Source: a bacterium
Lineage (GTDB): Bacteria > UBA8248
NCBI GenBank assembly: GCA_965207065.1
Contig: OZ242260.1
Coordinates: 800,001-864,000 of the forward strand
Length of the DNA: 64,000 nt
Reading direction: 5' to 3'
A model generated the notes under the pieces. The model had not been told where the DNA came from. It saw only the letters and a list, made by a program, of their open reading frames with translations, and made no database searches. The position numbers and the translations under genes were made by a program. Position 1 is the first letter of the stretch; every line of letters starts with the position of its first letter. Positions 356 to 35,245 of this stretch are shown here, one piece after another.

Positions 356-1858
356 CTAGATGAACCCGGCGACGGTGCCCTTCGCCGCGTCGAGGAAGCT
401 GCCCGGGAAGATGCCCAGCAGAAGCGTCGCCACCACCAGCACCACCAGGGCGAAGAAAAGAGAGGGCGCGCTCGACAGGCTCATCACCTCCTGGCCCTCG
501 CCCCGGTTCTCCATGTACATCACCATGATGATGCGCCCGTAGTAGTACATCGAGACCGCGCTCATCACGAGACCGATGACGGCCAGCCAGTAGTACTCGT
601 TCTGAACCGCCGCGGCGAAGAGGTAGAGCTTGCCGACGAAGCCGGCCGTCGGCGGGATGCCGCCGAGCGAGAGCAGGAACACCACGAAGGCCATCCCCGC
701 CCAGGGGTGCGCCTGCCCGATTCCCTTCCAGTCCTCGATGTTGTCGCCCCGGTAGCCGTCGCGGCACACGAGAATCAGCATCCCGAAGGCCCCGAGGTTC
801 GTGAACAGGTAGGCGAGCAGGTAGAACGCCACCGCGCTGATGCCGATGTCGGTGAACGTCACCTTGCCGTCCACCACGCTCATGGTGGCCACCACGCCCA
901 TCAGCACGTAGCCCGCGTGCCCGATGCTCGAGTACGCCAGCATGCGCTTCAGGCTTGTCTGGGCGATGGCCGCCACGTTCCCCCACACCAGCGTGAACGC
1001 CGTGAGCGCCCACAACAGGGTGTTCCACCTGTCAGCCATGGCCGGTAACGCCACGAAGAATATCCGCATCAGGGCGGCGACGGTCGCGAACTTGACGGCC
1101 ACGGACATGAAGCCCGTAATCGGCGTCGGCGCGCCCGTGTAGGCGTCGGGCAGCCACATGTGGAACGGCGACAGCGCCAGCTTGAAGCCGAAGCCCGCGA
1201 CCAGGAGAATGAGGCCGAAAATCATCATCGGGTTCTGCGCGATGGCGGCGCCGCCTTCGCCCGAGAACGCCGCCGCGATTCCGCGAATCGAGGTCGTTCC
1301 GGTGAACCCGTACGTCAGTGCCATGCCGTAGAGGAGTACGCCCGAGGCGAAAGCGCCCATGAGGAAATACTTGAGGCCCGCCTCCCGGCTCAAGGGGTCG
1401 TGCCGCATGAACGCCACGAGCACGTAGATGCTGATGCTCATGGTCTCGAGTCCCAGATAGATCGAAATCAAATCGTTGCCAGAGGCCATCACGAGCATGC
1501 CGAACACCGAGAAGAGCAGCATGGCGTACAATTCGCCGAAGTTGATCTTCTCCACCTTGGCGTACTGAAGCAGCAGCAGGATGGAGATGGCCGTACAGAG
1601 CAGCACGCTCACCTTCACGAACACGCTCAGGTTGTCGACCACGTAGAAGCCGCTGAACGTCGTTCTCGCGCCCTCGCCCCATTGCCCGAAAGCGACGAGC
1701 GCGAGAATCACGACCCCCACGAACGCCACGACGCCCACGCGCGACTTGTTCTCGAGCGACACGAACAGGTCGAGAATCAGAACGGCGCATACGAGTATGG
1801 CCAGCCCTATCTCGGGAAGGGCCAGGGACAAGGCGATGTCGGGAATCACCACTTGCAT
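356..1858 (-). CDS. nuoN: NADH-quinone oxidoreductase subunit N (reduced 10-gene operon)
   Basis: Multi-TM antiporter-like protein with EAGLKYFLMG, FKLALSPFHMWLPDAYTGAP and KRMLAYSSIGHAGY; last gene after nuoM. Confidence 0.97.
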   Translation of the reverse strand: MQVVIPDIALSLALPEIGLAILVCAVLILDLFVSLENKSRVGVVAFVGVVILALVAFGQWGEGARTTFSGFYVVDNLSVFVKVSVLLCTAISILLLLQYAKVEKINFGELYAMLLFSVFGMLVMASGNDLISIYLGLETMSISIYVLVAFMRHDPLSREAGLKYFLMGAFASGVLLYGMALTYGFTGTTSIRGIAAAFSGEGGAAIAQNPMMIFGLILLVAGFGFKLALSPFHMWLPDAYTGAPTPITGFMSVAVKFATVAALMRIFFVALPAMADRWNTLLWALTAFTLVWGNVAAIAQTSLKRMLAYSSIGHAGYVLMGVVATMSVVDGKVTFTDIGISAVAFYLLAYLFTNLGAFGMLILVCRDGYRGDNIEDWKGIGQAHPWAGMAFVVFLLSLGGIPPTAGFVGKLYLFAAAVQNEYYWLAVIGLVMSAVSMYYYGRIIMVMYMENRGEGQEVMSLSSAPSLFFALVVLVVATLLLGIFPGSFLDAAKGTVAGFI

Positions 1859-1892
1859 CGGAAAGACTCCATCAAATCAAGCGAAATCTCGT

Positions 1893-3443
1893 TCATTTTT
1901 TCTCGAGCTTCGTCAGTTTACCGAGCGCGGCCTTTTGCGGGACCTCCGCCGCGTTCACCATCTTCACGACCTTCTTCACGCTCGCCTCCATCCTTCCGAG
2001 GAACGGCTTGGGATACAGGCCGATCCAGAACATCAGGATGACCAGCGGCAGAAGGTAGAGAACCTCGCGCGCGTTGCAGTCGGTGAGCTTCTCGTTCTCC
2101 GGATTATCCAGCGTACCGAAGAATACCCGCTGGAATAGCCAGAGCATGTAGGCCGCCCCCAGGACGATGCCGATGACGGCGAACGCCGCGTACACGTAGC
2201 TCTTCTTGAACGCGCCGATCAGGATCAAGAACTCGCCCACGAACCCGTTGAGCCCCGGCAGACCGATGCTGCTCAGCATCGTGATGGCGAAAAGCACCGT
2301 AAAGACCGGCACGACCTTCGAGAGGCCGCCATAATCGGAGATGAGGCGCGTATGACGCCTCTCGTAAACGACGCCCACCAGAAGGAACAAGGCGCCCGTG
2401 CTGATCCCGTGGTTGATCATCTGTAGCTGCCCGCCGAGCACGCCCTGTTCGTTCAAGGCGAACACGCCCAGCATCACGAAGCCCAGGTGGCTCACGGAGG
2501 AATAGGCCACCAGTTTCTTGATGTCGGTCTGCGCCATGGCCACCAGCGCCCCGTAGATGATGCCGATGATGGAGAGAAGCATCATGAAGGGCACGAAAAC
2601 ATGGCTCGCCTGGGGGAGTAGCGGCAGGGCGAAGCGCACGAAACCGTAGGTTCCCATTTTCAGGAGGATGCCCGCCAGAATCACGCTGCCCGCAGTGGGC
2701 GCTTCCACGTGCGCGTCCGGCAGCCAGGTGTGGAAGGGGAACATGGGGACCTTGATGGCGAATCCGATGAAGAACGCCAGGAATATCCATATCTGGAGCG
2801 AAAGCGGTATCTTCGGCCCCACGCCGTACAACTCGACCAGGTCGAACGTGAGGGTTCCGGTGCCCATTTTCAAGTTGGCGAAGTAGAACGCCAGAATTCC
2901 CAGCAGCATCAACACGCTGCCGAACAGCGTATAGAGGAAGAACTTGATCGCCGCGTAGAGCTTCCTCGGCCCGCCCCACACGCCGATGAGGAAATACATC
3001 GGCACCAGGGTAATCTCGAAGAACACGTAGAAGAGGAAGATATCAAGCGCGATGAAGGTGCCCAGCATGCCGGTCGCCAGCAAAAGGAGGCAGACGTAGT
3101 ATTCTTTCTCGCGCTCCTCGATGGCGGTGAACGAGCATACGACCCCTATGATCATCGTGAGCGTGGTGAGAAGAACGAGCAGCACGCTGATCCCGTCGAT
3201 GCCGACGAAATAGCTCACCCCGATGGTGGGTATCCAGCTCACCTTCTCCACGAACTGAAAGCCGGCTTCGGACTGATCGAACCTGAACCAGAGGGGAAGC
3301 GAAATCAGGAAGTCCAAGACCGCCACCGCCGTGGCGAAACCCTTGATGGCTTTCGTCTGCTCTTTTTTCATGAAGAGCATGATAATCACCGCGCCCGCCG
3401 CGGGCAGGAAGGTGATCATCGTAAGAAGCGGCATGTTACTCAT
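1893..3443 (-). CDS. nuoM: NADH-quinone oxidoreductase subunit M (reduced operon)
   Basis: GIDGIS, FYVFFE, AIKVPMFPFHTWLPDAHVEAPTAGSVILAG and KKLVAYSSVSH motifs. Confidence 0.97.
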   Translation of the reverse strand: MSNMPLLTMITFLPAAGAVIIMLFMKKEQTKAIKGFATAVAVLDFLISLPLWFRFDQSEAGFQFVEKVSWIPTIGVSYFVGIDGISVLLVLLTTLTMIIGVVCSFTAIEEREKEYYVCLLLLATGMLGTFIALDIFLFYVFFEITLVPMYFLIGVWGGPRKLYAAIKFFLYTLFGSVLMLLGILAFYFANLKMGTGTLTFDLVELYGVGPKIPLSLQIWIFLAFFIGFAIKVPMFPFHTWLPDAHVEAPTAGSVILAGILLKMGTYGFVRFALPLLPQASHVFVPFMMLLSIIGIIYGALVAMAQTDIKKLVAYSSVSHLGFVMLGVFALNEQGVLGGQLQMINHGISTGALFLLVGVVYERRHTRLISDYGGLSKVVPVFTVLFAITMLSSIGLPGLNGFVGEFLILIGAFKKSYVYAAFAVIGIVLGAAYMLWLFQRVFFGTLDNPENEKLTDCNAREVLYLLPLVILMFWIGLYPKPFLGRMEASVKKVVKMVNAAEVPQKAALGKLTKLEKK

Positions 3444-3466
3444 AGTTCCTCCAAAACCTCATCGCA

Positions 3467-5488
3467 TCAGCGGAAAAGGTACGCGCTCAGCATCACGAAG
3501 ATGCCCAACAGCATCACGAAAAGATAATTCTGAACCATGCCGGATTGCAGGTATTTGAATACCTGGGAGAAGAAGCGGATGAAGCTCGCCGTGCCGTTCA
3601 CCGCGCCGTCCACCGTCCGCAGGTCGAAAATGCCCGAGAAGCGGCTCGACACCATAGTGATGAGCGAACTGCCGTTCACCGCCCCGTCCACCACCTTCGC
3701 ATCGAAGGTCCACAGGCCGCGCATGAGCTTGTAGGTCGGCTCGACGATGCAGGCCTGGTAAATCTCGTCAACATAGTATTTGCCGAGGAGCAGGTAATAG
3801 ATGCCCGGTATGCTCCTGTACAGGCGCCTCGGCGCTCCGGTGTCCTTGACGTACATGTACCACGCCAGGGCGATGCCGCCCACGGCGACTGCGATGGCCA
3901 GGATGATCAGAAGCACCACCGCCGGGCCGCTGTGCCCGCCGCCGGCCGCGGCGTTCATCAGGTGCACGCCCTGGTCCATGGCGTGGCCGCCCGCCGGCAT
4001 CTTCGCCAGCGAGGGCGCGAGGAAGCGGTGTATCCAGCCGCCCTCGGGCGGGAAGCCGGGAATCACGCCGCCGATGACGCTCAGGACCGCCAGGATGATG
4101 AGCGGAACCGTCATCGTGGGGGGTGATTCGTGAATATGCTCGCGGGCGTGATGGTCGACGCGCATCTCGCCGTGAAACGTCATGAAGATGAGCCGGAACA
4201 TGTAGAAGGCCGTCATGAAGGCCGCGACGGTGCCCATGATCCAGACCGTGTAGTGTCCCGTGAAGAAGGCGTTCGCCAGAATCTCGTCCTTGCTCCAGAA
4301 GCCCGCCAGAGGCGGAACGCCCGCGATGGCGATCGCGCCGATCAGGAACGTCCAGTACGTGATGGGCATCTTGTCCTTCAAGCCGCCCATGTAGCGCATG
4401 TCCTGCTGCTGTTCCTCGGGCGCATGGTGAAGCGCGTGGATCACGCTGCCGCTGCCCAGAAAGAGCAGGCCCTTGAAGAAGGCGTGCGTCATCAGGTGGA
4501 AGATGGCGGCCGTGAAGGCGCCCACGCCCAGCGCCATGAACATGAAGCCGAGCTGGCTTACCGTGCTGTAGGCGAGCACGCGTTTGATGTCGTTCTGCAC
4601 CAGGCCGATGCTCGCGGCGAAAAGCCCCGTGAGCGCGCCGACGACGGCGATGACGCTCATCGCGTCCGGCCCCATGACGTAGATGGGGCTCGTGCGCGCG
4701 ACCATGTAGACGCCCGCCGTCACCATGGTGGCGGCGTGGATGAGGGCGCTGACGGGGGTCGGGCCTTCCATGGCGTCGGGCAGCCAGACGTAGAGCGGAA
4801 TCTGCGCGCTCTTGCCGACGGCGCCGACGAACAGCAGAAGGCCGACGGCCGACGCCATCGCCGCGCTCATCTCGGGAGCCGCCTGGAAGACTTCCGTGTA
4901 GGTGAGGCTGCCGGTCAGCGTCCAGATGAGGAACATGCCGAGCAGGAAGCCCGCGTCGCCGATTCGGTTGACGATGAACGCCTTCTTGCCGGCGTCTGAT
5001 GCGGATTGCTTCTCGTACCAGAAGCCGATGAGCAGATAGCTGCAAAGGCCCACGCCCTCCCAGCCGACGAACATGACGAGATAGTTGTCCCCCAGCACCA
5101 GCAGGAACATCGAGAGCATGAACAGGTTGAGATAGGTGAAAAAGCGCGGATAGCCCGGGTCGCCGTGCATGTAGCCCACGGCGTAGACGTGCACCAGAAA
5201 GCCCACGCCCGACACCACGAGCAGCATGATGGTGCTCAGCGGGTCGATGAGGAAGCTCATGGAAACGCTCAGGCTTCCCGCTTCCACCCACGTCCAGAGC
5301 GGTATGGTGTGGCTGCCGCCCGCGCCGAATATCATCTGCCCGGCGATGCCCAGCACAACGAGAAACGACAGCCCCGCCATGCCGGAGGCGATGGGGCCCG
5401 CATTCTCGCCCACGTGCTTTCCGAACAATCCGTTGATCAGGACCCCGATCACCGGAAAAACGGGAATGAGCCAAGCCAGTTCGATCAT
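3467..5488 (-). CDS. nuoL: NADH-quinone oxidoreductase subunit L (reduced operon)
   Basis: GWEGVGLCSYLLIGFW, GKSAQIPLYVWLPDAMEGPTPVSALIHAATMV and a C-terminal transverse-helix region. Confidence 0.97.
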   Translation of the reverse strand: MIELAWLIPVFPVIGVLINGLFGKHVGENAGPIASGMAGLSFLVVLGIAGQMIFGAGGSHTIPLWTWVEAGSLSVSMSFLIDPLSTIMLLVVSGVGFLVHVYAVGYMHGDPGYPRFFTYLNLFMLSMFLLVLGDNYLVMFVGWEGVGLCSYLLIGFWYEKQSASDAGKKAFIVNRIGDAGFLLGMFLIWTLTGSLTYTEVFQAAPEMSAAMASAVGLLLFVGAVGKSAQIPLYVWLPDAMEGPTPVSALIHAATMVTAGVYMVARTSPIYVMGPDAMSVIAVVGALTGLFAASIGLVQNDIKRVLAYSTVSQLGFMFMALGVGAFTAAIFHLMTHAFFKGLLFLGSGSVIHALHHAPEEQQQDMRYMGGLKDKMPITYWTFLIGAIAIAGVPPLAGFWSKDEILANAFFTGHYTVWIMGTVAAFMTAFYMFRLIFMTFHGEMRVDHHAREHIHESPPTMTVPLIILAVLSVIGGVIPGFPPEGGWIHRFLAPSLAKMPAGGHAMDQGVHLMNAAAGGGHSGPAVVLLIILAIAVAVGGIALAWYMYVKDTGAPRRLYRSIPGIYYLLLGKYYVDEIYQACIVEPTYKLMRGLWTFDAKVVDGAVNGSSLITMVSSRFSGIFDLRTVDGAVNGTASFIRFFSQVFKYLQSGMVQNYLFVMLLGIFVMLSAYLFR

Positions 5489-5495
5489 GATTCCC

Positions 5496-5798
5496 CTACC
5501 ACTTCAAAAGGTTGATTTCGTCCACGTTGACCATCGTGCGGTCGCGGTTGAGCGCAATGAGTATCGCAAGTCCCACGGCCGCCTCGCACGCCGCCACGGT
5601 GATGACGAAGATGGCGAACACCTGGCCCGTCATATCCGCCAGGTGGCGCGAGAAGCCCACGAAGGTCACGTTCACGGCGTTGAGCATCAACTCGATGGAC
5701 AACAGGATGATGATGGCGTTGCGGCGCATCAGAACGCCCATCGCGCCGATGAGGAACAGGACGGCGCCCAGGACGAGAAAATGAGTCATCGGTATCAT
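5496..5798 (-). CDS. nuoK: NADH-quinone oxidoreductase subunit K (reduced operon)
   Basis: 100 aa, 3 TM; RRNAI, IELMLNA and [10 protein letters not shown]. Confidence 0.96.
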
Positions 5799-5816
5799 TG
5801 CGGGTTCTCTCTCCCT

Positions 5817-6326
5817 CTATCGCTCTATCGTGCGCTTCGCGAGGACGATGGCGCCGATCATCGAGGCCAGCAGGAGGACGGAGGCCACCTCGAAGGGAAA
5901 CAGGAATTTCGTGTACAAGACCGCGCCCAGGGCTTCGACGTTGCCCGGCGTGGCTCCCAGCGACCACTCCCACTGCTTGGGCGCCCCGAACTCCACCTCC
6001 CCCAGCACGGCCCATATTTCCAGCCCCAGAAGCACGGCCGCCACGAGCACCACGACGCCCTGGCGGTGCCACTGCCGCATCCGCACGGCCACCTCCACGT
6101 TCATCAGCATGATCGAGAACAGGTAGAGCACCATGATGCCGCCCGCGTAGAGCAATATCTGCACCGCCGCCAGAAACTCCGCTCCCGCCAGCACGAAGAC
6201 GCCCGCCAGGAAGAAGAACGTCAGCACCAGCAGCAGGGCCGCGTGAATCACGTTCGCGCGCGTGATCATCAGCAGGGAGGTCAGGATCATCCCGCCCGCG
6301 AACATATAGAAGAAATAGATTTCCAC
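5817..6326 (-). CDS. nuoJ: NADH-quinone oxidoreductase subunit J (reduced operon)
   Basis: AEFLAAVQILLYAGGIMVLYLF and FPFEVASVLLL motifs. Confidence 0.95.
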   Translation of the reverse strand: MEIYFFYMFAGGMILTSLLMITRANVIHAALLLVLTFFFLAGVFVLAGAEFLAAVQILLYAGGIMVLYLFSIMLMNVEVAVRMRQWHRQGVVVLVAAVLLGLEIWAVLGEVEFGAPKQWEWSLGATPGNVEALGAVLYTKFLFPFEVASVLLLASMIGAIVLAKRTIER

Positions 6327-6345
6327 CCTGCGTCTCTCCCGCTGG

Positions 6346-7317
6346 TTACAAGAACAGGTACTTCAGGAATCCGGTCAGGAAAATGTTGAGCATCACGAGC
6401 GGGAACATGAACTTCCATCCCACGCGCATCAGCTGATCGTAACGGTAGCGCGGCAGCGTCGCCCGCAGCCATATGAACACGAACATCAAGGCGCCCAGTT
6501 TGAGGCAGTACCAGACGAAGCCGGGGAGCGGAATGAAATCCGGCCCATCCCATCCGCCGAAAAACAGCACGATGCCAATCGTCGATATGACCATCATGCT
6601 GGCGTACTCCGCCAGGAAGAAGAACGCGAACTTCATCCCGCTGTATTCGGTGTGAAAGCCGGCCACGAGTTCGGTTTCCGCCTCGGGCAGGTCGAAGGGC
6701 ACCCGGTTCGTCTCCGCAAGCGCCGCGATAAAGAAGACGATAAAGGCCAACGGCTGATAGAACACGAACCATACGTCGCGCTGCGCGTGTACGATCTCCT
6801 GCAGGTTCAGGGAACCGGCGAGCATCAGCGGCCCGATGACGGAGAAGCCCAGGAATATCTCGTAGCTCAGCATCTGCGCCGCGCTCCTGAGCGCGCCCAG
6901 AAGCGAGTATTTGCTGTTCGAGGCCCAGCCCGCCATCACCACGCCGAACACGCCGAGTGAGCTGATCGCCAGAACGAAAAACAGCCCGATGTTGATTTGC
7001 GTGATATAGAACGTCGCGCTGAAGGGCAGCACCGCATAGACGACCAGTGCGGGCACCAGCACCATCACGGGGGCCAGGACGAAAACAACGCGGTCCGCCT
7101 TGTCGGGGATGATGTCTTCTTTGAAAAACAGCTTGAGCCCGTCCGCTATCGGCTGAAGGAGCCCGTGCCAGCCCACGCGCATCGGCCCCAGGCGCAACTG
7201 TGCGTGGGCGATCACTTTTCGCTCGACGTAGATCATATACGCCACCACGAGTTGCACCACGTTGACCACGATGAATATCTTTATCGCGGCGACCGCGACT
7301 TCTAGCGCCATGTCCAA
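6346..7317 (-). CDS. nuoH: NADH-quinone oxidoreductase subunit H (reduced operon)
   Basis: [25 protein letters not shown] and [26 protein letters not shown]. Confidence 0.97.
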
Positions 7318-7329
7318 CGAAACGACTCC

Positions 7330-8472
7330 TTACCGATCACACTCGCCCAACACGATGTCGATGCTTCCGATGATGGCCACCACGTCCGCGACCAACTGCC
7401 CGATGCACAGCTTCTTGAGCCCCCCCAGGTTGATGAACGAGGGCGGGCGGATGCGGACGCGATAGGGCGTCGTCGTCCCATCGCTCACGATGTAGAAGCC
7501 GAACTCGCCCTTGGGGTTTTCGATGCTGTGGTATATCTCGCCCTCCGGGGGCTTGATGGTTCGCGGCGTCTTGCAGGTCACCGGCCCGCCGGGAAGCTGG
7601 TCCAGGCACTGCTGGATGATGCGGGTGCTCTGGCGCAACTCCTCGATGCGCACCAGATAGCGGTCGTATATGTCGCCGTTCTCGCCGACGGGAACGACGA
7701 AATCGAGATAGGGATACGCCGCGTATGGCTTGGCGCGCCTTAAGTCCCAACGCACGCCGCTGCCCCGGATGATCGGGCCCGTCAATCCTAAGTCCATCGC
7801 ATCCTCGGCGGAGATGATGCCCACGTCGCGCGTCCTCTGCAGCCAGATGCGGTTGTTCGTGAGCAGCGTCTCGTAATCATCGATCCGGCTCGGGAAAATA
7901 TCGATGAACTCCTGCGTGAGTTGCAGGAACTTGTCCGGCACGTCCTCGTGCAGACCGCCCAGGCGGAAGGCGTTCACCGTCAGTCGGCCGCCGAACGCCG
8001 TCTCGAAGAGATCGAGCACCATCTCGCGCTCTCGGAAGCACCACAGGAACACCGTCATCGCCCCGATGTCGAGAGCGTGCGTGGCGAGCCAGAGCAGGTG
8101 GCTGGCGATGCGGGAGAGCTCCCCCACCATCGAGCGGATGTACTGCGCCCGCATGGGGATCTCCCAGTCGAAGAATTTCTCCACCGCCGTGACCCACGCG
8201 AGATTGTTCGAGGGCGCCGCGATGTAGTCGAGGCGGTCCGTATAGGGGATGAACATCGTGTAGGTGATGTTCTCGCCGATCTTCTCCGTGCCGCGGTGCA
8301 GGTAGCCGATGTCGCAGTCGAGGTCGTTCACCGTCTCGCCGTCGAGTTTCAGGATCACCCGGAGCACCCCGTGCGTGCTCGGGTGCTGGGGACCCATGTT
8401 GATGACGAGTTCTTCGGTCCCGTGCAGGGTGCTCTGCTGCTCGATACGAGACGTGTTCGCTACGCCGACCAT
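7330..8472 (-). CDS. nuoD: NADH-quinone oxidoreductase subunit D, short form (reduced operon)
   Basis: NMGPQHPSTHGVLR, GYLHRG, DRLDY and C-terminal IDIVLGECDR; no NiFe CxxC pairs. Confidence 0.96.
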   Translation of the reverse strand: MVGVANTSRIEQQSTLHGTEELVINMGPQHPSTHGVLRVILKLDGETVNDLDCDIGYLHRGTEKIGENITYTMFIPYTDRLDYIAAPSNNLAWVTAVEKFFDWEIPMRAQYIRSMVGELSRIASHLLWLATHALDIGAMTVFLWCFREREMVLDLFETAFGGRLTVNAFRLGGLHEDVPDKFLQLTQEFIDIFPSRIDDYETLLTNNRIWLQRTRDVGIISAEDAMDLGLTGPIIRGSGVRWDLRRAKPYAAYPYLDFVVPVGENGDIYDRYLVRIEELRQSTRIIQQCLDQLPGGPVTCKTPRTIKPPEGEIYHSIENPKGEFGFYIVSDGTTTPYRVRIRPPSFINLGGLKKLCIGQLVADVVAIIGSIDIVLGECDR

Positions 8473-8501
8473 TCCCTCATTTCCTCAAAAAGTGCGTTGC
8501 T

Positions 8502-9092
8502 CTAATCGCCGATTTCCTTGCGCTTCGGCTTGGTGTAAATCCGCTCTCCCCGACCCTCGAGCGGATAGTCCTTCCGCATCGGATGGCTGCCCCAGTTGTC
8601 GGGCAGAAGTATCCGCCTGAGATCCGGATGACCCTCGAATTCGATGCCGAACAAATCGTAGATTTCACGCTCCATCCAGTCCGCGCTGCTCCATACGCCC
8701 GAAACCGTAGGCATGGCCTGGCCTTCCTTGATCCGCACTTTCAGGCGAAGCCTGCGGTTATGTTCGATGCTGTAGAGCTGATACAGCACCTCGAAGGGAT
8801 TTTCGGCCTCCGGGTAGTGCACCGCCGTCAAGTCGGTGAGGAGTTTGAAGAGCGTATCGCCGTGGTCGCGCAGATGCGTGGACACGGCGACGATGGAGTC
8901 GAGTCCCACGACGAACGTCGCCTCGTCCTCATCGTCCTGATAGGCGCTCTGCTCCAGAACTGCGCCCGGAAACGCCGATTCCACCACTTCCTTCAAATCC
9001 TCGCCGGGCGGAGTCTTCACGGCTTCGGCGGGCTCATCGGCATCCGGAGCGCCGTTCGTCTGTTCGCTGTTTTCCTCTACCTCGTCCGGCAT
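8502..9092 (-). CDS. nuoC: NADH-quinone oxidoreductase subunit C (reduced operon)
   Basis: W.EREIYDLFGI.FEGHPDLRRIL..GSHPMRKDYP. Confidence 0.96.
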   Translation of the reverse strand: MPDEVEENSEQTNGAPDADEPAEAVKTPPGEDLKEVVESAFPGAVLEQSAYQDDEDEATFVVGLDSIVAVSTHLRDHGDTLFKLLTDLTAVHYPEAENPFEVLYQLYSIEHNRRLRLKVRIKEGQAMPTVSGVWSSADWMEREIYDLFGIEFEGHPDLRRILLPDNWGSHPMRKDYPLEGRGERIYTKPKRKEIGD

Positions 9093-9118
9093 CTTCTTCC
9101 CTTGTGCGCCGCAGGTTG

Positions 9119-9595
9119 TTACCGGCGGATGTATTTTTCCTGTTCAATTTTTTTCTGAAGCTGCATGACGCCCCACATCAAGGATTCGGGCCTGGGCGGG
9201 CAACCCGGAATGTAGACGTCCACCGGGATGATTTCATCCACTCCCTGCATCACCGCATAGTTCGCGTACGGGCCGCCGCAGGTGGCGCAGTTGCCCATCG
9301 CGATCACCCAGCGCGGCTCGGGCATCTGGTCGTAGACCTTGCGAATCGCATCACCCATCTTGTGGGTGACGGTGCCCGCCACGATGATCACGTCGGACTG
9401 GCGCGGCGTGGCGCGGAAGATCACGCCGAAACGGTCGAAATCGTAGCGCGCAGCGCCCGAGGCCATCATCTCGATGGCGCAGCACGCCAGGCCGAAGGTC
9501 ATCGGCCAAAGCGCGCTCTTCCTCGCCCAGGCGACCAGGCTGTCGACTTTCGACGTGACGAAATTATCGCTGAACTTGCCCTCGACTATGCCCAC
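9119..9595 (-). CDS. nuoB: NADH-quinone oxidoreductase subunit B (reduced operon)
   Basis: [11 protein letters not shown] and PGCPPRPE (N2 cluster ligands); GTG start at 9595 overlaps the nuoA stop, so the ORF-track start is too long. Confidence 0.95.
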
Positions 9596-9987
9596 TCCAA
9601 CGCTCCTTTTCGCCAAGCGTAGAAATAACCCACCAACAGGATGGCGATGAACAGCATCATCTCGATGAATCCGAACAGCCCGAGTGCGTCGTAGCGCACC
9701 GCCCAGGGGAAGAGGAACAAGGCCTCCACGTCGAAGAGCAGGAACAGTATGCCCAGCAGGTAGAACCGGATGGAGAAGCGCTCGTGCGCCTCCATCAGCG
9801 GGGGCATGCCGCACTCATAGGGGGAGTTCTTCTCGGAGTCGGGGTTGTTCGGGCGGACCAGCATCGCGAAGATCAGAATACTCGCCGCGAGGGCGGCCGC
9901 CATGAGCGTGATCAGGAAGATGGGGACGTAGGGATTGATGACCTGATAATCCCTGAAAAACGCGCCTACAACCTCCATGGCATCCAT
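9586..9987 (-). CDS. nuoA: NADH-quinone oxidoreductase subunit A (reduced operon)
   Basis: [22 protein letters not shown] and [10 protein letters not shown]; start chosen at ATG 9987 after a GGGGGA RBS. Confidence 0.94.
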
Positions 9988-10157: not shown

Positions 10158-11636
10158 TCAATTAAAAAAGACCGTGGATCGATGGGCGAAATCCAGCACC
10201 GAGGAGGGGAAAATCCCCAATTGCAGGGTGGTCGCTACGGCGAGCACGAGCGCCGCGACCGCGTAGGACCAGCCCGGATGCGGCGCGCGCTTCACCACGC
10301 CGCCTTGCGGTTCGCGCATGTACATCACCACGACGAGCCTCAGGTAATAATACACGGCCACCACGCTGTTGAGCACCGCTATCACGGTCAGCCAGACGTA
10401 GCCGCCGTTCAGCGCTGCGCTGAACACGTGGAATTTCGCCACGAAACCCCCGGTGGGCGGAAGGCCGGAGAGCGAGACCATGAACACGGCCATCGCCGCC
10501 GCGAGACCTGGCCGGAAAGAGGCCAGACCCGCGAGGTTATCCAGCTTCGTGCCGCCGTCCTCGCGCATGTTCGAGATGAGGGTGAGCACGCAGAAAGCGC
10601 CCATGTTCATGAAAACGTAGACGAGCATGTAGTACAGGAACCCGCTCGTGGCCAACTCGGCACTCGAGCGCGACGCCACGAGCGCGACCATGAGATAGCC
10701 GGCGTGGGCGATGCTCGAATAGGCGAGCATCCGCTTCACGCAGGACTGCCAGATGGCGACGAGGTTCGCCAGGCTCATCGTGAGCACGGCCATCACCCAA
10801 AAAACCGTATCGAAGCTCCCGCCGGCGTCGCCCGCGGAGAGAAAAACCCGGAAAAACGCGGCGAAAGCCGCCGCCTTCGGACCCACGGACATGAACGCCG
10901 TCACCGCGGTGGGCGCGCCCTCGTATACGTCCGGCGTCCACATGTAGAAAGGCGCCGCGGCCACCTTGAAGCCCAGCCCAACCACCATGAAGCCCAGGCC
11001 CATCAGGAAGGCTGCCCCTCGCGAGGCGGGATTCTCGTGAAGCCGCGTGGCGATTTCTATCAGGTCGACCGACCCCGTCGCGCCGTAGACGAGCGCCATG
11101 CCGTAGAGCAGGAAACCCGAGGCGAACGAACCGAGCAGAAAGTATTTGAGCGACGCCTCGTTGCCCTCGGGACGCGCGCGCAGATAACCCGCCAGGACGT
11201 AGAGCGACAGGGAGAACACTTCCAGGCCCACGAAGATCATCAGCAGGTTCCGCGTCGCCGCCATGAGCATCATGCCGGAGGTGGCGAAGAGGATGAGGCC
11301 GAAATACTCGCCCGCCGGCGTATCGTCCAGCTCCCGCTGGGCCGCGGCGATGAGCACCGAGAAAATGCTCGCGAACAGGATGACGACGTAGAGAAACTGC
11401 GTGAACCCGTCGAAGAGGTACATGCCGCCGAACGACGCGGCCAGGCCCGGCAGCGCGCGCGCGCCGAGCGTCACCCCCAGGGCGGCGGCCAGCGTCATCA
11501 GCGTGATGATGATGATGACGGAGCGCTCCCCTTTTGCGAGAAAAACGTCCCACATCAGAACCAGCACCGCCCCGAATACCGGCAGGATCACCGGCAGCAG
11601 GTATCCCCAATGGATGGTGGGATGAACGATTTCCAA
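10158..11636 (-). CDS. nuoN: NADH-quinone oxidoreductase subunit N (full operon)
   Basis: EASLKYFLLGS, FKVAAAPFYMWTPDVYEGAP and KRMLAYSSIAHAGY. Confidence 0.97.
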   Translation of the reverse strand: MEIVHPTIHWGYLLPVILPVFGAVLVLMWDVFLAKGERSVIIIITLMTLAAALGVTLGARALPGLAASFGGMYLFDGFTQFLYVVILFASIFSVLIAAAQRELDDTPAGEYFGLILFATSGMMLMAATRNLLMIFVGLEVFSLSLYVLAGYLRARPEGNEASLKYFLLGSFASGFLLYGMALVYGATGSVDLIEIATRLHENPASRGAAFLMGLGFMVVGLGFKVAAAPFYMWTPDVYEGAPTAVTAFMSVGPKAAAFAAFFRVFLSAGDAGGSFDTVFWVMAVLTMSLANLVAIWQSCVKRMLAYSSIAHAGYLMVALVASRSSAELATSGFLYYMLVYVFMNMGAFCVLTLISNMREDGGTKLDNLAGLASFRPGLAAAMAVFMVSLSGLPPTGGFVAKFHVFSAALNGGYVWLTVIAVLNSVVAVYYYLRLVVVMYMREPQGGVVKRAPHPGWSYAVAALVLAVATTLQLGIFPSSVLDFAHRSTVFFN

Positions 11637-11638
11637 AG

Positions 11639-13195
11639 CTATTTCACCTCGACTCTTTGCACATAAGCGAGCGCGCTCTTTTGCAATTTCCGCTCAGGCG
11701 CCTTCTCCACGCGCAGCACCCGGCGGTTCACCTGCGTGAGCCAGGCCTTGGCCGACGGCTCGATGCGGTTGAACAACGGTTTGGGGTAAAGCCCGATCCA
11801 GAACATCAGCGCCACCATGGGCAGCATGACGAGCCACTCGCGCCTGTTCATGTCGGCGAGCCCCAGGTTCGCCCGCACGCTTACCTCGCCGAACAGCACG
11901 CGCTGGAGCATCCAGAGCATGTAGACCGCCGAGAGAACCACGCCGGTGGCCGCGATTACGGCGAACCAGGCGTTGCGCTCGAACGCGCCCAGCAGAATCG
12001 TGAACTCGCCCACGAACCCGTTCAGCCCCGGGAGGCCGATGCTGCTCAGCGCCGTGATGATGAAAAACGTCGAGAACACGGGCATCACCCGAAGGAGCCC
12101 TCCGAATTCATCGATTTGCCGCGTGTGCCTCCTCGAATAGATGAAGCCCACGATCAGGAAGAGCGCCCCGCTGCTGATGCCGTGGTTCACCATCTGGATA
12201 ACGCTCCCCGAGGCGCCCAGGAGGTTGAAGGAGAAAAGCCCCAGCATCACGAAGCCCAGATGGCTCACCGAGGAGTAGGCCACGAGCTTTTTCACGTCGG
12301 TCTGCACCATGGCCATGAGCGCCCCGTAGATGATCCCCACCAGCGCCAGGCATATGATGAGGAACGCGAACTCGCGCGCCGCCGTCGGGAACAGCGGCAT
12401 CGCCAGCCTCATGAAGCCGTACGTGCCCATTTTCAGGAGGACGCCGGCGAGGATGACGCTTCCCGCCGTGGGCGCTTCCACGTGGGCGTCGGGCAGCCAG
12501 GTGTGAAACGGGAAAATCGGCACCTTGATGGCGAAGGAGATGGCGAACGCGGCGAACAGCCACGGCTGGAGGGCGGCGTCCACCGGTTCTCTGATATGCG
12601 CCAGGATGTCGAACGTGCCGACCCCGCTCGTGAAATACAGCCAGATGATCGCCACGAGCATCAGCACGCTTCCGGCCATGGTGTACAGGAAGAACTTGAC
12701 GGCCGCGTAAATCCGGCGTCCCCCGCCCCAGACCCCGATGATGAGGTACATCGGAATCAGCATCCCTTCCCAGAAGACGTAGAACAGGAAGAAATCGAGC
12801 GCGAAGAACACACCGAGCATCCCCGTCTCCAGGAACAGCAGGGACATGTAGTAGAGCCTGGTCTTTTTCCGCACGTCCTCGAAGGAGAAAAGAATCGCGA
12901 CGGGCGTCAGGATGGTGGTCAGCATCACGAGCAGCAGGCTGATGCCGTCAACGCCCACCTTGTAGGAAATCCCGAATCTCGGGATCCACGCCGCTTCTTC
13001 GACGAACTGCATATCCGCGAAACCGGGCCGGAAGCCCATGTACATCACGGCCGAAAGAGCGAACGTGACCAGCGACACCGCCAGCGCGAACGCGCGTATG
13101 CCTCCGCTCCCCTTGCGCTCACCCTCTCGCGCGAACAGGAGCAGCAGACCGCCCAGCATGGGCAGGAACAGTATCGACGTGATTATTCCAGGCAC
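11639..13195 (-). CDS. nuoM: NADH-quinone oxidoreductase subunit M (full operon)
   Basis: GVDGIS, FYVFWE and AIKVPIFPFHTWLPDAHVEAPTAGSV. Confidence 0.97.
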   Translation of the reverse strand: MPGIITSILFLPMLGGLLLLFAREGERKGSGGIRAFALAVSLVTFALSAVMYMGFRPGFADMQFVEEAAWIPRFGISYKVGVDGISLLLVMLTTILTPVAILFSFEDVRKKTRLYYMSLLFLETGMLGVFFALDFFLFYVFWEGMLIPMYLIIGVWGGGRRIYAAVKFFLYTMAGSVLMLVAIIWLYFTSGVGTFDILAHIREPVDAALQPWLFAAFAISFAIKVPIFPFHTWLPDAHVEAPTAGSVILAGVLLKMGTYGFMRLAMPLFPTAAREFAFLIICLALVGIIYGALMAMVQTDVKKLVAYSSVSHLGFVMLGLFSFNLLGASGSVIQMVNHGISSGALFLIVGFIYSRRHTRQIDEFGGLLRVMPVFSTFFIITALSSIGLPGLNGFVGEFTILLGAFERNAWFAVIAATGVVLSAVYMLWMLQRVLFGEVSVRANLGLADMNRREWLVMLPMVALMFWIGLYPKPLFNRIEPSAKAWLTQVNRRVLRVEKAPERKLQKSALAYVQRVEVK

Positions 13196-13230
13196 TCGCC
13201 CCTAACGCTCCTCAAAGAATCGAAAAATCA

Positions 13231-15135
13231 TTACCGGGCCGTGAGGTACAGCAGAATCACGAGCGCGCCGACCAGCATCGATACGGCGTAGCTCTTCACG
13301 TAGCCCGTCTGGAGACGCCTCAGGACGCCGCCCAGGGATTGCACGAAAAAACCCGCGCCGTTCACGGCCGCGTCGACCAGACCGTCCTCGAACGCTCGCC
13401 AGCACCAGATCGACGCCCGCTTTACCGGTTGAATGATCAAGGCGTCGTATATCTCGTCCACGTAATACTTGTTCACCAGAAGACGGTGGATTCTCGGCCA
13501 GAGTTCCGCGTACGCGCTGCCGCCGTCGTTTTTGAGCACATAGAGATTGTAGGCCGCGTATATTCCGATGAAGGCGACCGCGAGCGAGAAGACCATCATC
13601 AGTATCTCGAACACCACCTCATGGTGCGCCTCGCCGTGACCGCCGAAAACAGGAGCGAGGAAATCGCCGAATACGTTCGCCCCCGTGATGATGGGAATCC
13701 CCACCCAGCCGCCGACAATGGAGAGCGCCGCCAGCGCCTGAAGCGGAAGCGTCATATTGGCCGGAGATTCATGGACTTTCTGCTGCTCCTCCAGGCTCAG
13801 GCTGCAGGTGCCGAAGAATACGCGGAACAAGAGCCTGAACATGTAGAACGCCGTCATCAACGCGCCGGCCGCGCCTGCGAGCCACAGGAGCACCCCGCCG
13901 CGCTCGGCCGTCATGGCCGAATAGAGAATGGCGTCCTTGCTGAAAAAGCCGGCGAAGGGGAATACGCCTGCGATGGCCAGTGCGCCTATGAGGAAGGTGT
14001 TGCTCGTTCGCGGGAGGGCCGCGTGGAGTCCGCCCATCCTGCGAAGGTCCTGCTCTCCGTCAAGCGCGTGAATCACGCTCCCCGCGCCCAGGAACAGGAG
14101 CGCCTTGAAAAACGCATGAGTCATCAGATGGAAGATCGCCGCGGAAAACGCGCCCACGCCGCATGCCAGGAACATATAGCCCAGTTGGCTCACTGTGCTG
14201 TAGGCGAGCACCTTCTTGATGTCGGTCTGCACCAGGGCGATGGACGCCGCCATCAACAGCGTGAGCGCTCCGATGACCGCCACCACCAGCATCGCCGTCG
14301 ATGAGAGTTCGAAGAGCACGTGCGCTCTCGCCACCATGTAGACGCCCGCCGTCACCATCGTAGCCGCGTGTATCAGGGCGCTGACCGGGGTGGGGCCTTC
14401 CATCGCGTCGGGCAGCCAGACGTAAAGCGGAATCTGCGCGCTCTTGCCCGTGGCGCCCGCGAAGAGCAGCAGGCAGATTATCGTCGCCGCCGCGCTCTCG
14501 GGGCCGAGCAGTTGAGGGGCCTTCGAGAACACCTCCGCGAAATCCAGCGAGCCCACGACGCTGTAGATGTAGAAAAGCGCAATCAGGAAGCAGAAATCAC
14601 CCACCCGGTTCACGATGAACGCCTTCTTGCCGGCCTCGGCCGCCGCCTTGCGCTCGTACCAGAAGCCGATGAGCAGGTAGCTGCAAAGACCCACCGCCTC
14701 CCAGCCCACGAACATGACCACGAAGTTGTCGCCCAGAACGAGCGTCAGCATGGAGAGCGAGAAGAGGTTCAGGTAGATGAAATAGCGAACCACGCCGCGG
14801 TCGCCGTGCATGTAGCCCATCGAGTAGAGGTGGATCAATGTCCCGACGCCGGTGACCACGAGCGCCATCACGGCCGAGAGCGGATCCAGCGAGAAGCTCG
14901 CCTGGATTTCGAAGGCGCCCACGGGAATCCACTCGAACAGGACGGCGCGGATGAGCCGCCCCTTCTCGGGCATCGCCAGAAGGCGGAGCCAGCTCACGAG
15001 CGAGGCCGCGAACGCGAGCGCCAGCGCCAGCGTCGCGGTCCAGCCGGCGAACTTCTCCCCGCGCTTCCAGCCGAAGAGCAGGTTCACCAGAACGCCGATG
15101 AGAGGGAACGCCAATATGAGGGTCAGACTATCCAT
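13231..15135 (-). CDS. nuoL: NADH-quinone oxidoreductase subunit L (full operon)
   Basis: GWEAVGLCSYLLIGFW and GKSAQIPLYVWLPDAMEGPTPVSALIHAATMV. Confidence 0.97.
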   Translation of the reverse strand: MDSLTLILAFPLIGVLVNLLFGWKRGEKFAGWTATLALALAFAASLVSWLRLLAMPEKGRLIRAVLFEWIPVGAFEIQASFSLDPLSAVMALVVTGVGTLIHLYSMGYMHGDRGVVRYFIYLNLFSLSMLTLVLGDNFVVMFVGWEAVGLCSYLLIGFWYERKAAAEAGKKAFIVNRVGDFCFLIALFYIYSVVGSLDFAEVFSKAPQLLGPESAAATIICLLLFAGATGKSAQIPLYVWLPDAMEGPTPVSALIHAATMVTAGVYMVARAHVLFELSSTAMLVVAVIGALTLLMAASIALVQTDIKKVLAYSTVSQLGYMFLACGVGAFSAAIFHLMTHAFFKALLFLGAGSVIHALDGEQDLRRMGGLHAALPRTSNTFLIGALAIAGVFPFAGFFSKDAILYSAMTAERGGVLLWLAGAAGALMTAFYMFRLLFRVFFGTCSLSLEEQQKVHESPANMTLPLQALAALSIVGGWVGIPIITGANVFGDFLAPVFGGHGEAHHEVVFEILMMVFSLAVAFIGIYAAYNLYVLKNDGGSAYAELWPRIHRLLVNKYYVDEIYDALIIQPVKRASIWCWRAFEDGLVDAAVNGAGFFVQSLGGVLRRLQTGYVKSYAVSMLVGALVILLYLTAR

Positions 15136-15147
15136 GATTCCTTAGCT

Positions 15148-15450
15148 CTATAGCTTCAGTAGATTGATCTCGTCCAGGTCGGTGGATTCACGGTTTCTGT
15201 ATATCAGCACCACGATGGCCAGGCCGATAGCGGCTTCCGCCGCGGCCACCGCCATCACGAAAAACACGATCATCTGGCCCGCCATCGAGTCCAGGAAGTG
15301 ACCATAGGCCACGAACGCCAGATTCGCCCCGTTCATCATCAACTCGATGCACAAGATGACGACGATGGCGTTTCTGCGCACCACGACGCCCACGACTCCT
15401 AAAGAGAAGAGAACCGCGCTCAGAATCAGGTAATGCTCAAGCGGCGCCAC
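15148..15450 (-). CDS. nuoK: NADH-quinone oxidoreductase subunit K (full operon)
   Basis: RRNAI, IELMMNG and [10 protein letters not shown]. Confidence 0.96.
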
Positions 15451-15462
15451 GTCCCACTCCTC

Positions 15463-15981
15463 CTAGCGGCTTCGCCTGCTCGCCAGCACCACGGCGCCGA
15501 CGATGCCCACGAACAACAATACGCCCATGGCCTGGAACGGCAGGACGTAATCCGTCAACAACAGGTTTCCGATAATCTGCGTGTTGCCCAGCTCACTCAC
15601 GCGCTCCGGGGGAAAACTTCCCTTTTTGCCCGTCATGAGGGAGGTGGAGAGGAATATCTTGAGCAGCACGCTGAATACGGCGAGTCCCGCGATGGCGCCC
15701 AGCATCTTCTGTCCGGGCAGGCGCAGCTCTTTTTGCTCCTCCCGGCCCAGGTTGATCAGCATCACCACGAACAGGAATAGCATCATGATCGCGCTGGCGT
15801 AGATGATCACCTGAACGATGGCGACGAACTGCGCGTGAAGCGAGAGATACAGCCCGGCAAGGCCCAGGAAGGTCAGGATCAGGGCGAGCACGCTGTAGAG
15901 CGGGCTGGGAAACGCGACGACGGCTATCGCGCCCACCGTCGTCACCACCGCCAGGAAATAAAAGAACAGGGAACTGGCCAC
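15463..15981 (-). CDS. nuoJ: NADH-quinone oxidoreductase subunit J (full operon)
   Basis: AQFVAIVQVIIYASAIMMLFLFVVML; lies between nuoI and nuoK. Confidence 0.95.
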   Translation of the reverse strand: MASSLFFYFLAVVTTVGAIAVVAFPSPLYSVLALILTFLGLAGLYLSLHAQFVAIVQVIIYASAIMMLFLFVVMLINLGREEQKELRLPGQKMLGAIAGLAVFSVLLKIFLSTSLMTGKKGSFPPERVSELGNTQIIGNLLLTDYVLPFQAMGVLLFVGIVGAVVLASRRSR

Positions 15982-16026
15982 TACCGCCCTTCCTCCAGCG
16001 GGCGGGCGCCCGCTTCAAATCGAACC

Positions 16027-16506
16027 CTAGACATACGTGAGCAGGTTTTTCTCGTCATAGCGGGCATGAAGCTCCGGATAATCCTCGGTCCGCTCCACGA
16101 TCAAATCGCCCTTCTCGTAGAGGAACTTGCCCCGGTCGTCCTGACAGAATTCATACTCGTTGCCCAGCACGACCGCGCCGACCGGGCAGGCTTCTTCGCA
16201 ATATCCGCAAAAGATGCAGCGAAGCTCGTTGATCTCGTAAATGCTGGCGTAGCGCTCGCCCTTCGAAGTCGGCGCCTCGGGGTCGTTCTCCTCAGATTCC
16301 ACATATATGCAATCTACCGGACACGCTGCCGAGCAGAGCTTGCACCCCACGCAGCGCTCCAGGCCGTCCTCCCAGCGCAGCAGCTTGTGGAGGCCGCGGT
16401 AGCCCACGGGCATCTCCTCCTTGACGTCGGGGTACTGCACGGTCACGCGGTTTTTGAAGGAATGCTTGAGCGTCAGCCACAATCCCCTGCAAATCTCGCC
16501 TAACAT
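16027..16506 (-). CDS. nuoI: NADH-quinone oxidoreductase subunit I (2x[4Fe-4S])
   Basis: CVGCKLCSAACP and CIFCGYCEEACP ferredoxin motifs; VTVQYP. Confidence 0.97.
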   Translation of the reverse strand: MLGEICRGLWLTLKHSFKNRVTVQYPDVKEEMPVGYRGLHKLLRWEDGLERCVGCKLCSAACPVDCIYVESEENDPEAPTSKGERYASIYEINELRCIFCGYCEEACPVGAVVLGNEYEFCQDDRGKFLYEKGDLIVERTEDYPELHARYDEKNLLTYV

Positions 16507-16533
16507 GAATCCTCCCCCCTTTCGATCGGCCCG

Positions 16534-17514
16534 CTAGCCCAGGAAAACGACGGCGGCGGCCGTGAGCATCACGTTCAGGATGGACAGCGGCAGAAGCACC
16601 TTCCATCCGAAACCCATCAGTTGGTCATAGCGCAGGCGCGGCGTGGAGGCGCGCAGCCACATGAAGAAGAACATGAACGCCAGCACCTTGATCAGGAACC
16701 AGAGGACGGGCGGCAGCAGCGGTCCGCGCCATCCGCCGAGGAAAAACGTCGCCCCCACCGCCGAGAGCGTGATCATGCTGCAGTACTCGGCGATGGAATA
16801 AACCGCAAAGTGCATGCTGCTGTATTCGGTATGAAAGCCGCCCGTGAGTTCGCTCTCGGCCTCGGGCAAGTCGAAGGGCGCCCGGTTCGTCTCCGCCAGC
16901 ATGCAGATGACGAAGAGCAGAAAGCCCAGGGGCTGCAATACGATGTAGGGCATACCGGCCTGGGCCTCGACGATTCCCTTCAAGCTCAGGGTGCCCGAAA
17001 TCATGACCACGCCCAGAAGCGACATGCCCAGCGAGAGTTCGTAGCTTATCAACTGGGCGGCGGAGCGAAGCCCGCCGATGAGCGGATACTTGCTGTTCGA
17101 CGCCCATGAGCCGAGCACGATGCCGTACACGCCGATGCCCGCCATGGCGAAGATGTACAGGATGCCGACGTTCACGTCGGCCACCACCAGGTCCACCTTC
17201 TGGCCGAACACGGTCACGGAATCGCCGAAGGGAACCACGGCGAAGGCGGCCAGCGCCGGAATGAGCGTGACGGCGGGCGCCAGGACGTAAATCACCTTGT
17301 CCGCCTGAGCGGGAATGATGGTTTCCTTGAACATGAGCTTGATCCCGTCGGCGATGGGCTGCAGAAGCCCCAACGGTCCCACGCGGTTGGGACCCACGCG
17401 CACCTGTATGAGCGCGAACACGCGCCGCTCCATCCAGGTCATGTAGGCGGCGAGAAGCAAAAGCCCGCCGAAGCCCACGAGCACTTTCCCGAGAATGATG
17501 AGCAGCCAAATCAT
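16534..17514 (-). CDS. nuoH: NADH-quinone oxidoreductase subunit H (full operon)
   Basis: [19 protein letters not shown] and [17 protein letters not shown]. Confidence 0.97.
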
Positions 17515-20112: not shown

Positions 20113-20129
20113 CTATCGCCTCTCCCCCA

Positions 20130-21434: not shown

Positions 21435-21436
21435 CT

Positions 21437-22045
21437 TCAGACTCCTCGGCCCTGGCCTTCGCCGTCTGTTTCTTCGGCGCCTGCCAGGGCGGGCGACGCG
21501 ACTTCGTCCGCCCCGATGGGCGAGACGGACTCGCCATTTTCCAGCACGCTCAGGATATCGTTCATAATCTCGGGTGTTACGCGCTCGAAGTAGTCTTCGT
21601 TCACCTGCACGCAGGGAGCGCCGCCGCAGGCGCCCAGGCACTCGACCGCCTCGATCGAGAACTTCCCGTCCTCGCGCGTGTGGCCGGTGCGGCAATCCAG
21701 GCGGTTTTCGATATCGCGCAGCAGCCTGCCCGCTCCCATGAGGGCGCAGGAGAGGTTGTTGCACACCTGTACGTGGTACTCGCCGATAGGCTGGGTCTTG
21801 AGCATGGTGTAGAAGCTCACCACGCCCCACACCTCCATGGGGGAGACCTCGAAAATCTCGGCCACGTGCTGCATCACCGCGCTGGTGATGAAGCCCTCCT
21901 GCTCCTGGGCCAACTGGAGCGCGGGGATGAGGGCCGAGCGCTTTACCGGATACTTGGCGATGATGCGCTCTAATTCCGCGCGGTTCTCGGGCGAGAACTC
22001 GAAGCGTTCTTCCTGCCCGGAATGGGGAAACCGTATCAACGCCAA
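21437..22045 (-). CDS. nuoE: NADH-quinone oxidoreductase subunit E
   Basis: VCNNLSCALMG and ECLGACGGAP [2Fe-2S] ligands. Confidence 0.95.
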   Translation of the reverse strand: MALIRFPHSGQEERFEFSPENRAELERIIAKYPVKRSALIPALQLAQEQEGFITSAVMQHVAEIFEVSPMEVWGVVSFYTMLKTQPIGEYHVQVCNNLSCALMGAGRLLRDIENRLDCRTGHTREDGKFSIEAVECLGACGGAPCVQVNEDYFERVTPEIMNDILSVLENGESVSPIGADEVASPALAGAEETDGEGQGRGV

Positions 22046-22069
22046 AACGAGGCCATCCTCTATTTTACT

Positions 22070-23296: not shown

Positions 23297-23311
23297 TGGC
23301 TCCCGTGATCC

Positions 23312-23884: not shown

Positions 23885-23996
23885 CGGCTCAACCCCTCAT
23901 TCCACAAAGGTTTGTTTTACTTCACGAAAAAGCGCTCACCCCGCCCCTGAGTCGACTATCACAACTCACATGGCGTGGGGAGCCTTCTCACATCAT

Positions 23997-24494: not shown

Positions 24495-24841
24495 TCGAGC
24501 GCTCCCCGGCGCCACTCGTATATCAGACTGGCCACCAGCAAAGCCATGAAAGGCAGAATCGCGATAAACCCGTATACGCCCAGGCTTTTCAGGTTCACCG
24601 CCCATGGAAACAGGAAGATGGTCTCCACGTCGAAAACGATGAACAATATCGCCACCAGAAAGAATTTCACGCTGAAACGTCCCCGCGCGTTCGATTCGGG
24701 CACGATGCCGCACTCGTAGGCGAAATCCTTCTCCACCGTGGACTTGCGCCTGCCCAGCAGGAACGTCACGCCCAGGTTCACGACGGCGAACCCGACCGCC
24801 AGCGCTATCAGAATCAATATGGGTATATATTCTTCCGGCAT
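24485..24841 (-). CDS. nuoA: NADH-quinone oxidoreductase subunit A (full operon)
   Basis: [20 protein letters not shown] and [10 protein letters not shown]. Confidence 0.95.
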
Positions 24842-35207: not shown

Positions 35208-35245
35208 GGTGTGCTCCTCGCTCACGGGGGAACCGGTGGATTCGC

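Follow-up and report, generated by a model that had tools for sequence, protein, structure and literature searches.

The 64,000-nt window analysed here (G000:C1:800001-864000, the whole stretch of DNA) comes from a bacterium of the GTDB lineage UBA8248, whose genome (G000) consists of 4.48 Mb in one contig. Next to a complete complex I operon (operon 1), the window contains a second set of nuo genes in the order nuoABCDHJKLMN (operon 2). We estimate the probability at about 0.75 that a complex I-like proton pump of 11 subunits, lacking the NADH module, is encoded by operon 2 together with an unlinked nuoI (nuoI2), located ~400 kb away and outside the window, as judged from sequence comparison. 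This enzyme would belong to a known class, with one relocated gene. The original prediction, made from the window, described a ten-subunit complex lacking NuoI. This claim of a complex I without NuoI falls, since a second nuoI scoring above the family cut-off is present in the genome; the remaining result is modest but useful.

The other features described for operon 2 hold. All ten open reading frames are stop-free on translation and match their models in the order A, B, C, D, H, J, K, L, M, N, with eight of the ten proteins above at least one curated model cut-off and NuoA and NuoJ under the cut-offs of their best models. The gaps of 12 nt between nuoD2 and nuoH2 and of 19 nt between nuoH2 and nuoJ2 were measured as claimed, and the start of nuoB2 overlaps the stop of nuoA2 by 10 nt. 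NuoB2 has cysteines 38, 39, 103, and 132 (residues counted from position 9595), which we take to be the N2 ligands, and NuoD2 has the His and Tyr motifs that presumably belong to the quinone site. The ligands of clusters N2, N6a, and N6b are retained, and the large subunit is a NuoD, not a NiFe subunit. Decay of operon 2 is rejected by the ratios of nonsynonymous to synonymous substitution rates (dN/dS), which are 0.04-0.18 for nine of the ten genes (seven relatives per gene, nuoB left out), compared to 0.06-0.10 for five genes of operon 1. Fourteen runs recorded as RNA contained 0.13-0.23 of the sampled words, which is no evidence of expression. Across the 49 phylum genomes examined, nuoH2 is directly followed by nuoJ in all 46 whose junction is visible; of the other three, G060 and G063 lack a nuoH2 match, and in G023 the contig ends at this point. 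Scans of the window for promoter-like sites (1 against 2.9 in shuffled sequence) and terminator-like sites (14 against 9.4, standard deviation 3.3) were not used.

Searching the whole of G000 for NuoI gave 11 matches, two of which, nuoI1 of operon 1 and nuoI2, exceed the TIGR01971 cut-off. nuoI2 lies in a trxB-nuoI-pncB-nrnA cluster with gaps of 22, 25, and 13 nt. Its product matches solved NuoI subunits from the N-terminus on (E 2.5e-28), keeps the N-terminal helix of complex I, and has a predicted fold like that of NuoI, in agreement with a fold search; its dN/dS is 0.056 over nine relatives. The gene occurs in 46 of the 49 phylum genomes, the three genomes without a match being drafts of 50-230 contigs, and trxB is found directly upstream in 38 of the 38 genomes checked (eight further matches were outside this check). 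Upstream of trxB, one promoter-like site (10/12) was seen, but with 2 sites found against 0.9 expected it was not used. We found no paper on a trxB-linked nuoI, a weak negative given a limited library and varying gene names, and the excerpts of PMC9531527, PMC8941161, and PMC12361115 do not mention this layout.

The constant association of nuoI2 with trxB, and not with nuo genes, could mean that operon 2 encodes a true ten-subunit enzyme and that nuoI2 serves elsewhere, for example with TrxB. We regard this as extremely unlikely, given that NuoI2 keeps the complex I helix and fold, that nuoI2 is found together with operon 2 and provides the sole NuoI of two small genomes described below, and that G000 has trxB as its single thioredoxin reductase, with a score above the TIGR01292 cut-off. 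TrxB as an electron input module was rejected on the same ground, as an ordinary single thioredoxin reductase. Separately, another thioredoxin-reductase-like gene, scoring under the TIGR01292 cut-off, is present in both small genomes (G022 and G021, loci L191 and L192) and is split in G021.

We assign nuoI2 to operon 2 because its distribution, a loss test, an outgroup, and trees all agree, and NuoI2 very probably assembles with the ten operon-2 subunits. The loss test is provided by G021 and G022 (2.1 Mb and 95% complete, in 6 and 2 contigs), in which operon 1 is absent and NuoF and NuoG have no match. Each has one nuoH, in operon 2, and one nuoI, the orphan nuoI2, and the full NuoABCDHIJKLMN gene set is thus present as their sole complex I; in G000, the nuoI of this set is provided in trans. 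NDH-2 was detected in 3 of the 20 genomes tested, namely G021 (G021:C5:109915-111180), G022 (G022:C1:1129918-1131183), and G023. As for the outgroup, G032, placed by the NuoH tree as the sister of the lineage (Shimodaira-Hasegawa-like approximate likelihood ratio test, SH-aLRT, 99), and Aquificota relatives show the order ABCD-H-I-JKLM(N), in which nuoI stands between nuoH and nuoJ; next to its trxB, G032 has no nuoI. The gene nuoI takes the same position in the nearest outside operon, from RIFCSPLOWO2_12_FULL_45_22, whose class clusters with Tectomicrobia and UBA8248 in GTDB (PMC10839748, in excerpt). This points to that group, and not to class Nitrospinia, as the probable home of G000.

In a tree built from 84 NuoI proteins, the orphans (12 of the 84) come out as one clade (99/96) apart from operon-1 NuoI, and this clade sits within a group (85/86) of NuoI from operons lacking NuoEFG. 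Using 42 of the 84 rows, a clade of orphan and operon-1 NuoI was rejected by the approximately unbiased test (p-AU 0.0009); clades of the orphans with G032 (p-AU 0.29) and with G032 and Aquificota (0.49) were not rejected, which proves neither. The genome search and the subunit phylogeny suggested with the original prediction thus located nuoI2 and grouped it with the NuoI of 11-gene operons. Of the two sources proposed there for a borrowed NuoI, "elsewhere" is right, because nuoI2 groups with NuoI of NuoEFG-less operons and not with that of the neighbour; a loan from the neighbouring operon is not supported. Replacement of NuoI by another ferredoxin-like partner finds no support, since nuoI2 exists and has this affinity. 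An ordinary split operon, with a second nuoI and a second nuoEFG elsewhere, had also been considered; the nuoI was found and a cognate NuoEFG was not.

Indeed, G000 has one NuoEFG set, in operon 1, and operon 2 has no NuoE, NuoF, or NuoG of its own, as had been proposed. A possible second nuoEFG at 3.38 Mb was rejected, being an NAD-dependent formate dehydrogenase (TIGR01591 799 bits, cut-off 666); it is the only other E/F/G-like locus in G000, with no second NuoF beyond it. This formate dehydrogenase (G000:C1:3379585-3383990) has a fused NuoE/F-like subunit, and in G026 a similar locus divergently adjoins operon 1 (L173).

NuoD2 provides a further signature. All 34 NuoDs followed by E/F/G have a segment of 25 residues, which presumably touches NuoG. 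NuoD2 lacks it, as do 41 of 45 NuoDs directly followed by nuoH; it is also retained in four more rows, where nuoD precedes a different gene (the surveyed loci include repeats of some genomes). This bears on whether operon 2 might share NuoI1 and NuoEFG with operon 1 and work as a second NADH dehydrogenase. Sharing of NuoEFG was proposed for genomes that carry nuoEFG once and the other genes twice (PMC4453560, in excerpt), and in our case the two operons are adjacent at every locus that shows both (170 nt in G000), with a single NuoEFG set in this genome. Nevertheless, G021 and G022 keep operon 2 with no match to NuoF or NuoG, a dedicated nuoI2 is conserved, and NuoD2 lacks the segment common to all NuoEFG-linked NuoDs, which makes such sharing quite improbable.

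If operon 2 and nuoI2 form an 11-subunit complex, its electron donor has to be considered, an open question for such complexes (PMC3144371). In cyanobacterial NDH-1, ferredoxin binds K86, K89, and K91 of NdhI and K315 and K321 of NdhH (PMC7021789, in excerpt), with the NdhI lysines on a hairpin loop (PMC6992706, in excerpt). The structure model of NuoI2 shows a hairpin at residues 78-97 whose tip carries K85 and R87, and the orphan NuoI proteins have a 26-residue loop with two or three Lys or Arg at the hairpin tip in 38 of 38 cases, a basic loop that is also found in the in-operon NuoI of G032 and Aquificota; in operon-1 NuoI, the loop has 33 residues and a net charge of -2 to -6 (10/10). The aligned ranges of NuoD2 and NdhH are equal in length (302-380 with 316-394, and 302-332 with 316-346), which sets K301 and K307 opposite K315 and K321 of NdhH. 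Both NuoD2 sites are Lys or Arg in 48 of 49 loci (with one genome counted twice and three from outside the phylum). Together, NuoD2 and the hairpin of NuoI2 may be regarded as a candidate basic docking patch for ferredoxin, in the form of a sequence signature.

The metabolic context agrees with ferredoxin as the donor. POR_N was detected in 25 of 25 genomes, with no SucA match in 12 genomes and no Rnf match in 5. G000 has a KorAB-type pair with a KorA-type alpha subunit and a beta subunit under its cut-offs, and acidic ferredoxins are present, the types found being 4Fe-4S FdxA. Ferredoxin is the likeliest donor because of the absence of the segment from NuoD2 and the two lysines, the basic hairpin of NuoI2, and the presence of 2-oxoacid:ferredoxin oxidoreductases (OFOR) without a SucA or Rnf match, and it likely serves as the main donor in the forward direction, in line with the ferredoxin-type donor first suggested, for which the lack of the segment in NuoD2 and the NdhH register speak. 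Three further loci of G000 were noted: an FdxA-type ferredoxin followed by an Ala/Pro linker and ~220 residues (G000:C1:3826001-3826969) and a multi-cluster polyferredoxin near bc-complex-like genes (G000:C1:3760888-3761364), both candidate donors, and a three-gene OFOR that comes nearest to models of oxalate oxidoreductase, with scores under the cut-offs (G000:C1:3489481-3492930).

Reverse electron transport, in which the complex would mainly pass electrons from quinol to ferredoxin at the expense of the proton motive force, was also raised in the original prediction. Such a mode was proposed for Nitrospina NUO-2 (PMC3578206, in excerpt), and G000 has several ferredoxin-dependent enzymes. Nevertheless, none of the 11 class genomes searched has a NarG/Nxr-type match at E<=1e-20, although a divergent Nxr could escape, and none of 12 genomes has a RuBisCO match. 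Citrate-binding matches reach only 21-32 bits, those of G000 lying in genes that by inspection are succinyl-CoA-synthetase-like, which leaves no convincing citrate lyase. Operon 2 has only one NuoM, and a cell without SucA or Rnf needs a ferredoxin sink. We therefore consider this direction very unlikely.

A somewhat less remote alternative concerns cofactor F420. A protein with a 4Fe-4S dicluster domain and FrhB N and C domains (G000:C1:416833-418404), encoded inside the F420 operon between cofH and cofD and found once per genome in 25 of 28 class genomes, might dock like FpoF on the 11-subunit core and feed it electrons from F420H2, forming a bacterial Fpo/Fqo-like pump. This is unlikely, since the protein scores 111 bits with the FpoF model (cut-off 475) and higher with FrhB models, its gene is unlinked to any nuo gene, and G020, G021, G022, and G032, in which it was not found, all keep an operon of the operon-2 type, G021 and G022 even keeping cof genes. 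A soluble ferredoxin:F420 oxidoreductase role would, we presume, fit the protein too. The variant in which the complex is a docking platform for both ferredoxin and the FpoF-like protein, and hence a bacterial F420H2:quinone proton pump, is similarly doubtful; this role has so far been described for archaea (review PMC8498797, in excerpt). The F420 operon itself (G000:C1:414724-421461) reads cofG-cofH-[FpoF/FrhB-like]-[nitroreductase-like]-cofD-cofC-like-cofE, its FpoF/FrhB-like family has a Pro-rich C-terminal extension, and phage-like head and tail genes, identified by inspection, follow directly (G000:C1:422101-428034).

Several observations weigh against a ferredoxin-fed 11-subunit pump. 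The branch joining the orphans to NuoI of 11-gene operons (85/86) is not starred, NuoI being short, and the orphans with G032 alone were not recovered as a clade. Many of the compared genomes are close kin, and the counts are not independent. Four of the 45 NuoDs without NuoEFG retain the 25-residue segment, and the register of NuoD2 with NdhH is read from the aligned ranges. Regarding metabolism, alpha2beta2 E1 genes occur in 5 of 5 genomes, a 2-oxoacid is only the putative substrate of KorAB, and the sole OFOR alpha match of G021 is in two pieces (G021:C6:803387-804015), either a real break or an assembly error, in a genome that kept operon 2. Finally, G023 has NDH-2 and operon 1 together.

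In the mechanism that we propose, nuoI would have left an ancestral ABCD-H-I-JKLMN operon for the trxB-pncB-nrnA cluster early in the lineage. Reduced ferredoxin, chiefly from OFOR, would dock on the NuoI2 hairpin and the NuoD2 basic patch, electrons would pass from N6a and N6b in NuoI2 to N2 in NuoB2 and on to quinone, and NuoH, NuoL, NuoM, and NuoN would pump protons, while NADH would be handled separately by operon 1. The cluster order and the proton pumping are those of known complex I. The named residues, K301 and K307 of NuoD2 and K85 and R87 of NuoI2, make ferredoxin docking testable, and the lineage offers a natural experiment in which the NADH complex was lost, NDH-2 gained, and the headless complex retained. 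The NuoD segment may help to separate headless from NuoEFG-dependent complexes in genomes, and surveys based on operons would count the operon-2 enzyme as incomplete.

Table 1 Coordinates of the two nuo operons and of nuoI2 (window positions, except for nuoI2)
Feature	Position	Strand	Remarks
Operon 2, nuoABCDHJKLMN	356..9987	-	10 genes; the eleventh (nuoI2) is outside the window
nuoA2, 133 aa	9586..9987	-	NuoA model match, below curated cut-off
nuoB2, 158 aa, four N2 cysteines (presumed)	9119..9595	-	TIGR01957 240 bits, cut-off 143
nuoC2, 196 aa	8502..9092	-	TIGR01961 144 bits, cut-off 122
nuoD2, 380 aa	7330..8472	-	NuoD model match; without 25-residue segment; K301, K307
nuoH2, 323 aa	6346..7317	-	NuoH model match
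nuoJ2, 169 aa	5817..6326	-	NuoJ model match, below curated cut-off
nuoK2, 100 aa	5496..5798	-	NuoK model match
nuoL2, 673 aa	3467..5488	-	TIGR01974 755 bits
nuoM2, 516 aa, one copy in operon 2	1893..3443	-	TIGR01972 643 bits
nuoN2, 500 aa	356..1858	-	TIGR01770 438 bits
Operon 1, complete 14-gene nuoA-N	10158..24844	-	ends 170 nt upstream of nuoA2
nuoI1, 159 aa, 33-residue acidic loop between cluster motifs	16027..16506	-	not the inferred partner of operon 2
nuoI2 (orphan), 182 aa, two 4Fe-4S motifs, basic hairpin	G000:C1:1211108-1211656	-	TIGR01971 121-122 bits, cut-off 113

Elsewhere in the window, by inspection, we assume a PLP (pyridoxal phosphate) decarboxylase (25149-26279, + strand), nitrile-hydratase-like subunit genes (34443-35533, - strand), and a lysine-aminomutase-like radical SAM (S-adenosylmethionine) gene (45575-46993, - strand). 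An Mrp-type antiporter operon (G000:C1:2671573-2677417, by inspection) is separate from both nuo operons. At loci L083, L084, L102, L103, L106, L108, and L112, a gene 24-27% identical to TrxB stands between nuoD and nuoG; with its flavin/pyridine nucleotide fold, it is perhaps an alternative input module of those complex I operons. In G020, nuoH1, nuoH2, nuoI1, nuoF, and nuoG each occur twice with identical scores, on C8 and C11, probably an assembly duplication.

Compared with known systems, operon 2 differs from the 14-subunit NADH:quinone oxidoreductase in having no NuoE, F, or G, and from 2M complex I, defined by a second nuoM in the operon, in having one nuoM and not two. Archaeal Fpo/Fqo share the 11-subunit core, and G000 contains F420 genes as well as a protein built like FpoF, but this protein is unlinked, scores far under the FpoF cut-off, and is absent from some genomes that carry the operon. 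NUO-2 of Nitrospina gracilis, from a related lineage, is, according to excerpts of PMC3578206 and PMC10839748, likewise a second complex I with dispersed genes for which ferredoxin was proposed; it consists of nuoACHIJKLMN, nuoEGD, and separate B and F, with nuoI in the cluster. NUO-2 has its own modified NuoEFG with a NuoF2 lacking flavin mononucleotide (FMN), whereas operon 2 has another gene order and G000 no second NuoF apart from the formate dehydrogenase.

The likeness to cyanobacterial NDH-1L (PDB 6KHI, 6L7O; excerpts of PMC6992706 and PMC7021789) consists of the basic NuoI/NdhI hairpin and the two NuoD/NdhH lysines in register, although the ferredoxins found here are 4Fe-4S FdxA types, not plant-type, and the pathway is different. 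Haloarchaea, in the excerpt of PMC8305020, have Nuo without NuoEFG together with KorAB/PorAB and NDH-2, which is the same logic as in G021 and G022: ferredoxin-linked decarboxylation, a headless Nuo as proposed ferredoxin sink, and NDH-2 for NADH. Most members of our lineage, unlike haloarchaea, also keep a full complex I, and the haloarchaeal role is itself unproven (same excerpt). The Desulfitobacterium hafniense model (PMC11238625, in excerpt) is a parallel to the ferredoxin-fed reading given here. The closest match is the known 11-subunit complex I without NuoEFG, which has the same eleven subunits, an operon with no gene for a designated partner, ferredoxin as proposed shuttle, and, likewise, an NAD-dependent formate dehydrogenase elsewhere that mimics nuoEFG. 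What sets operon 2 apart from this form is that its nuoI lies away from the operon, in a constant place next to trxB across the phylum, and that the operon stands in tandem with a full 14-gene operon.

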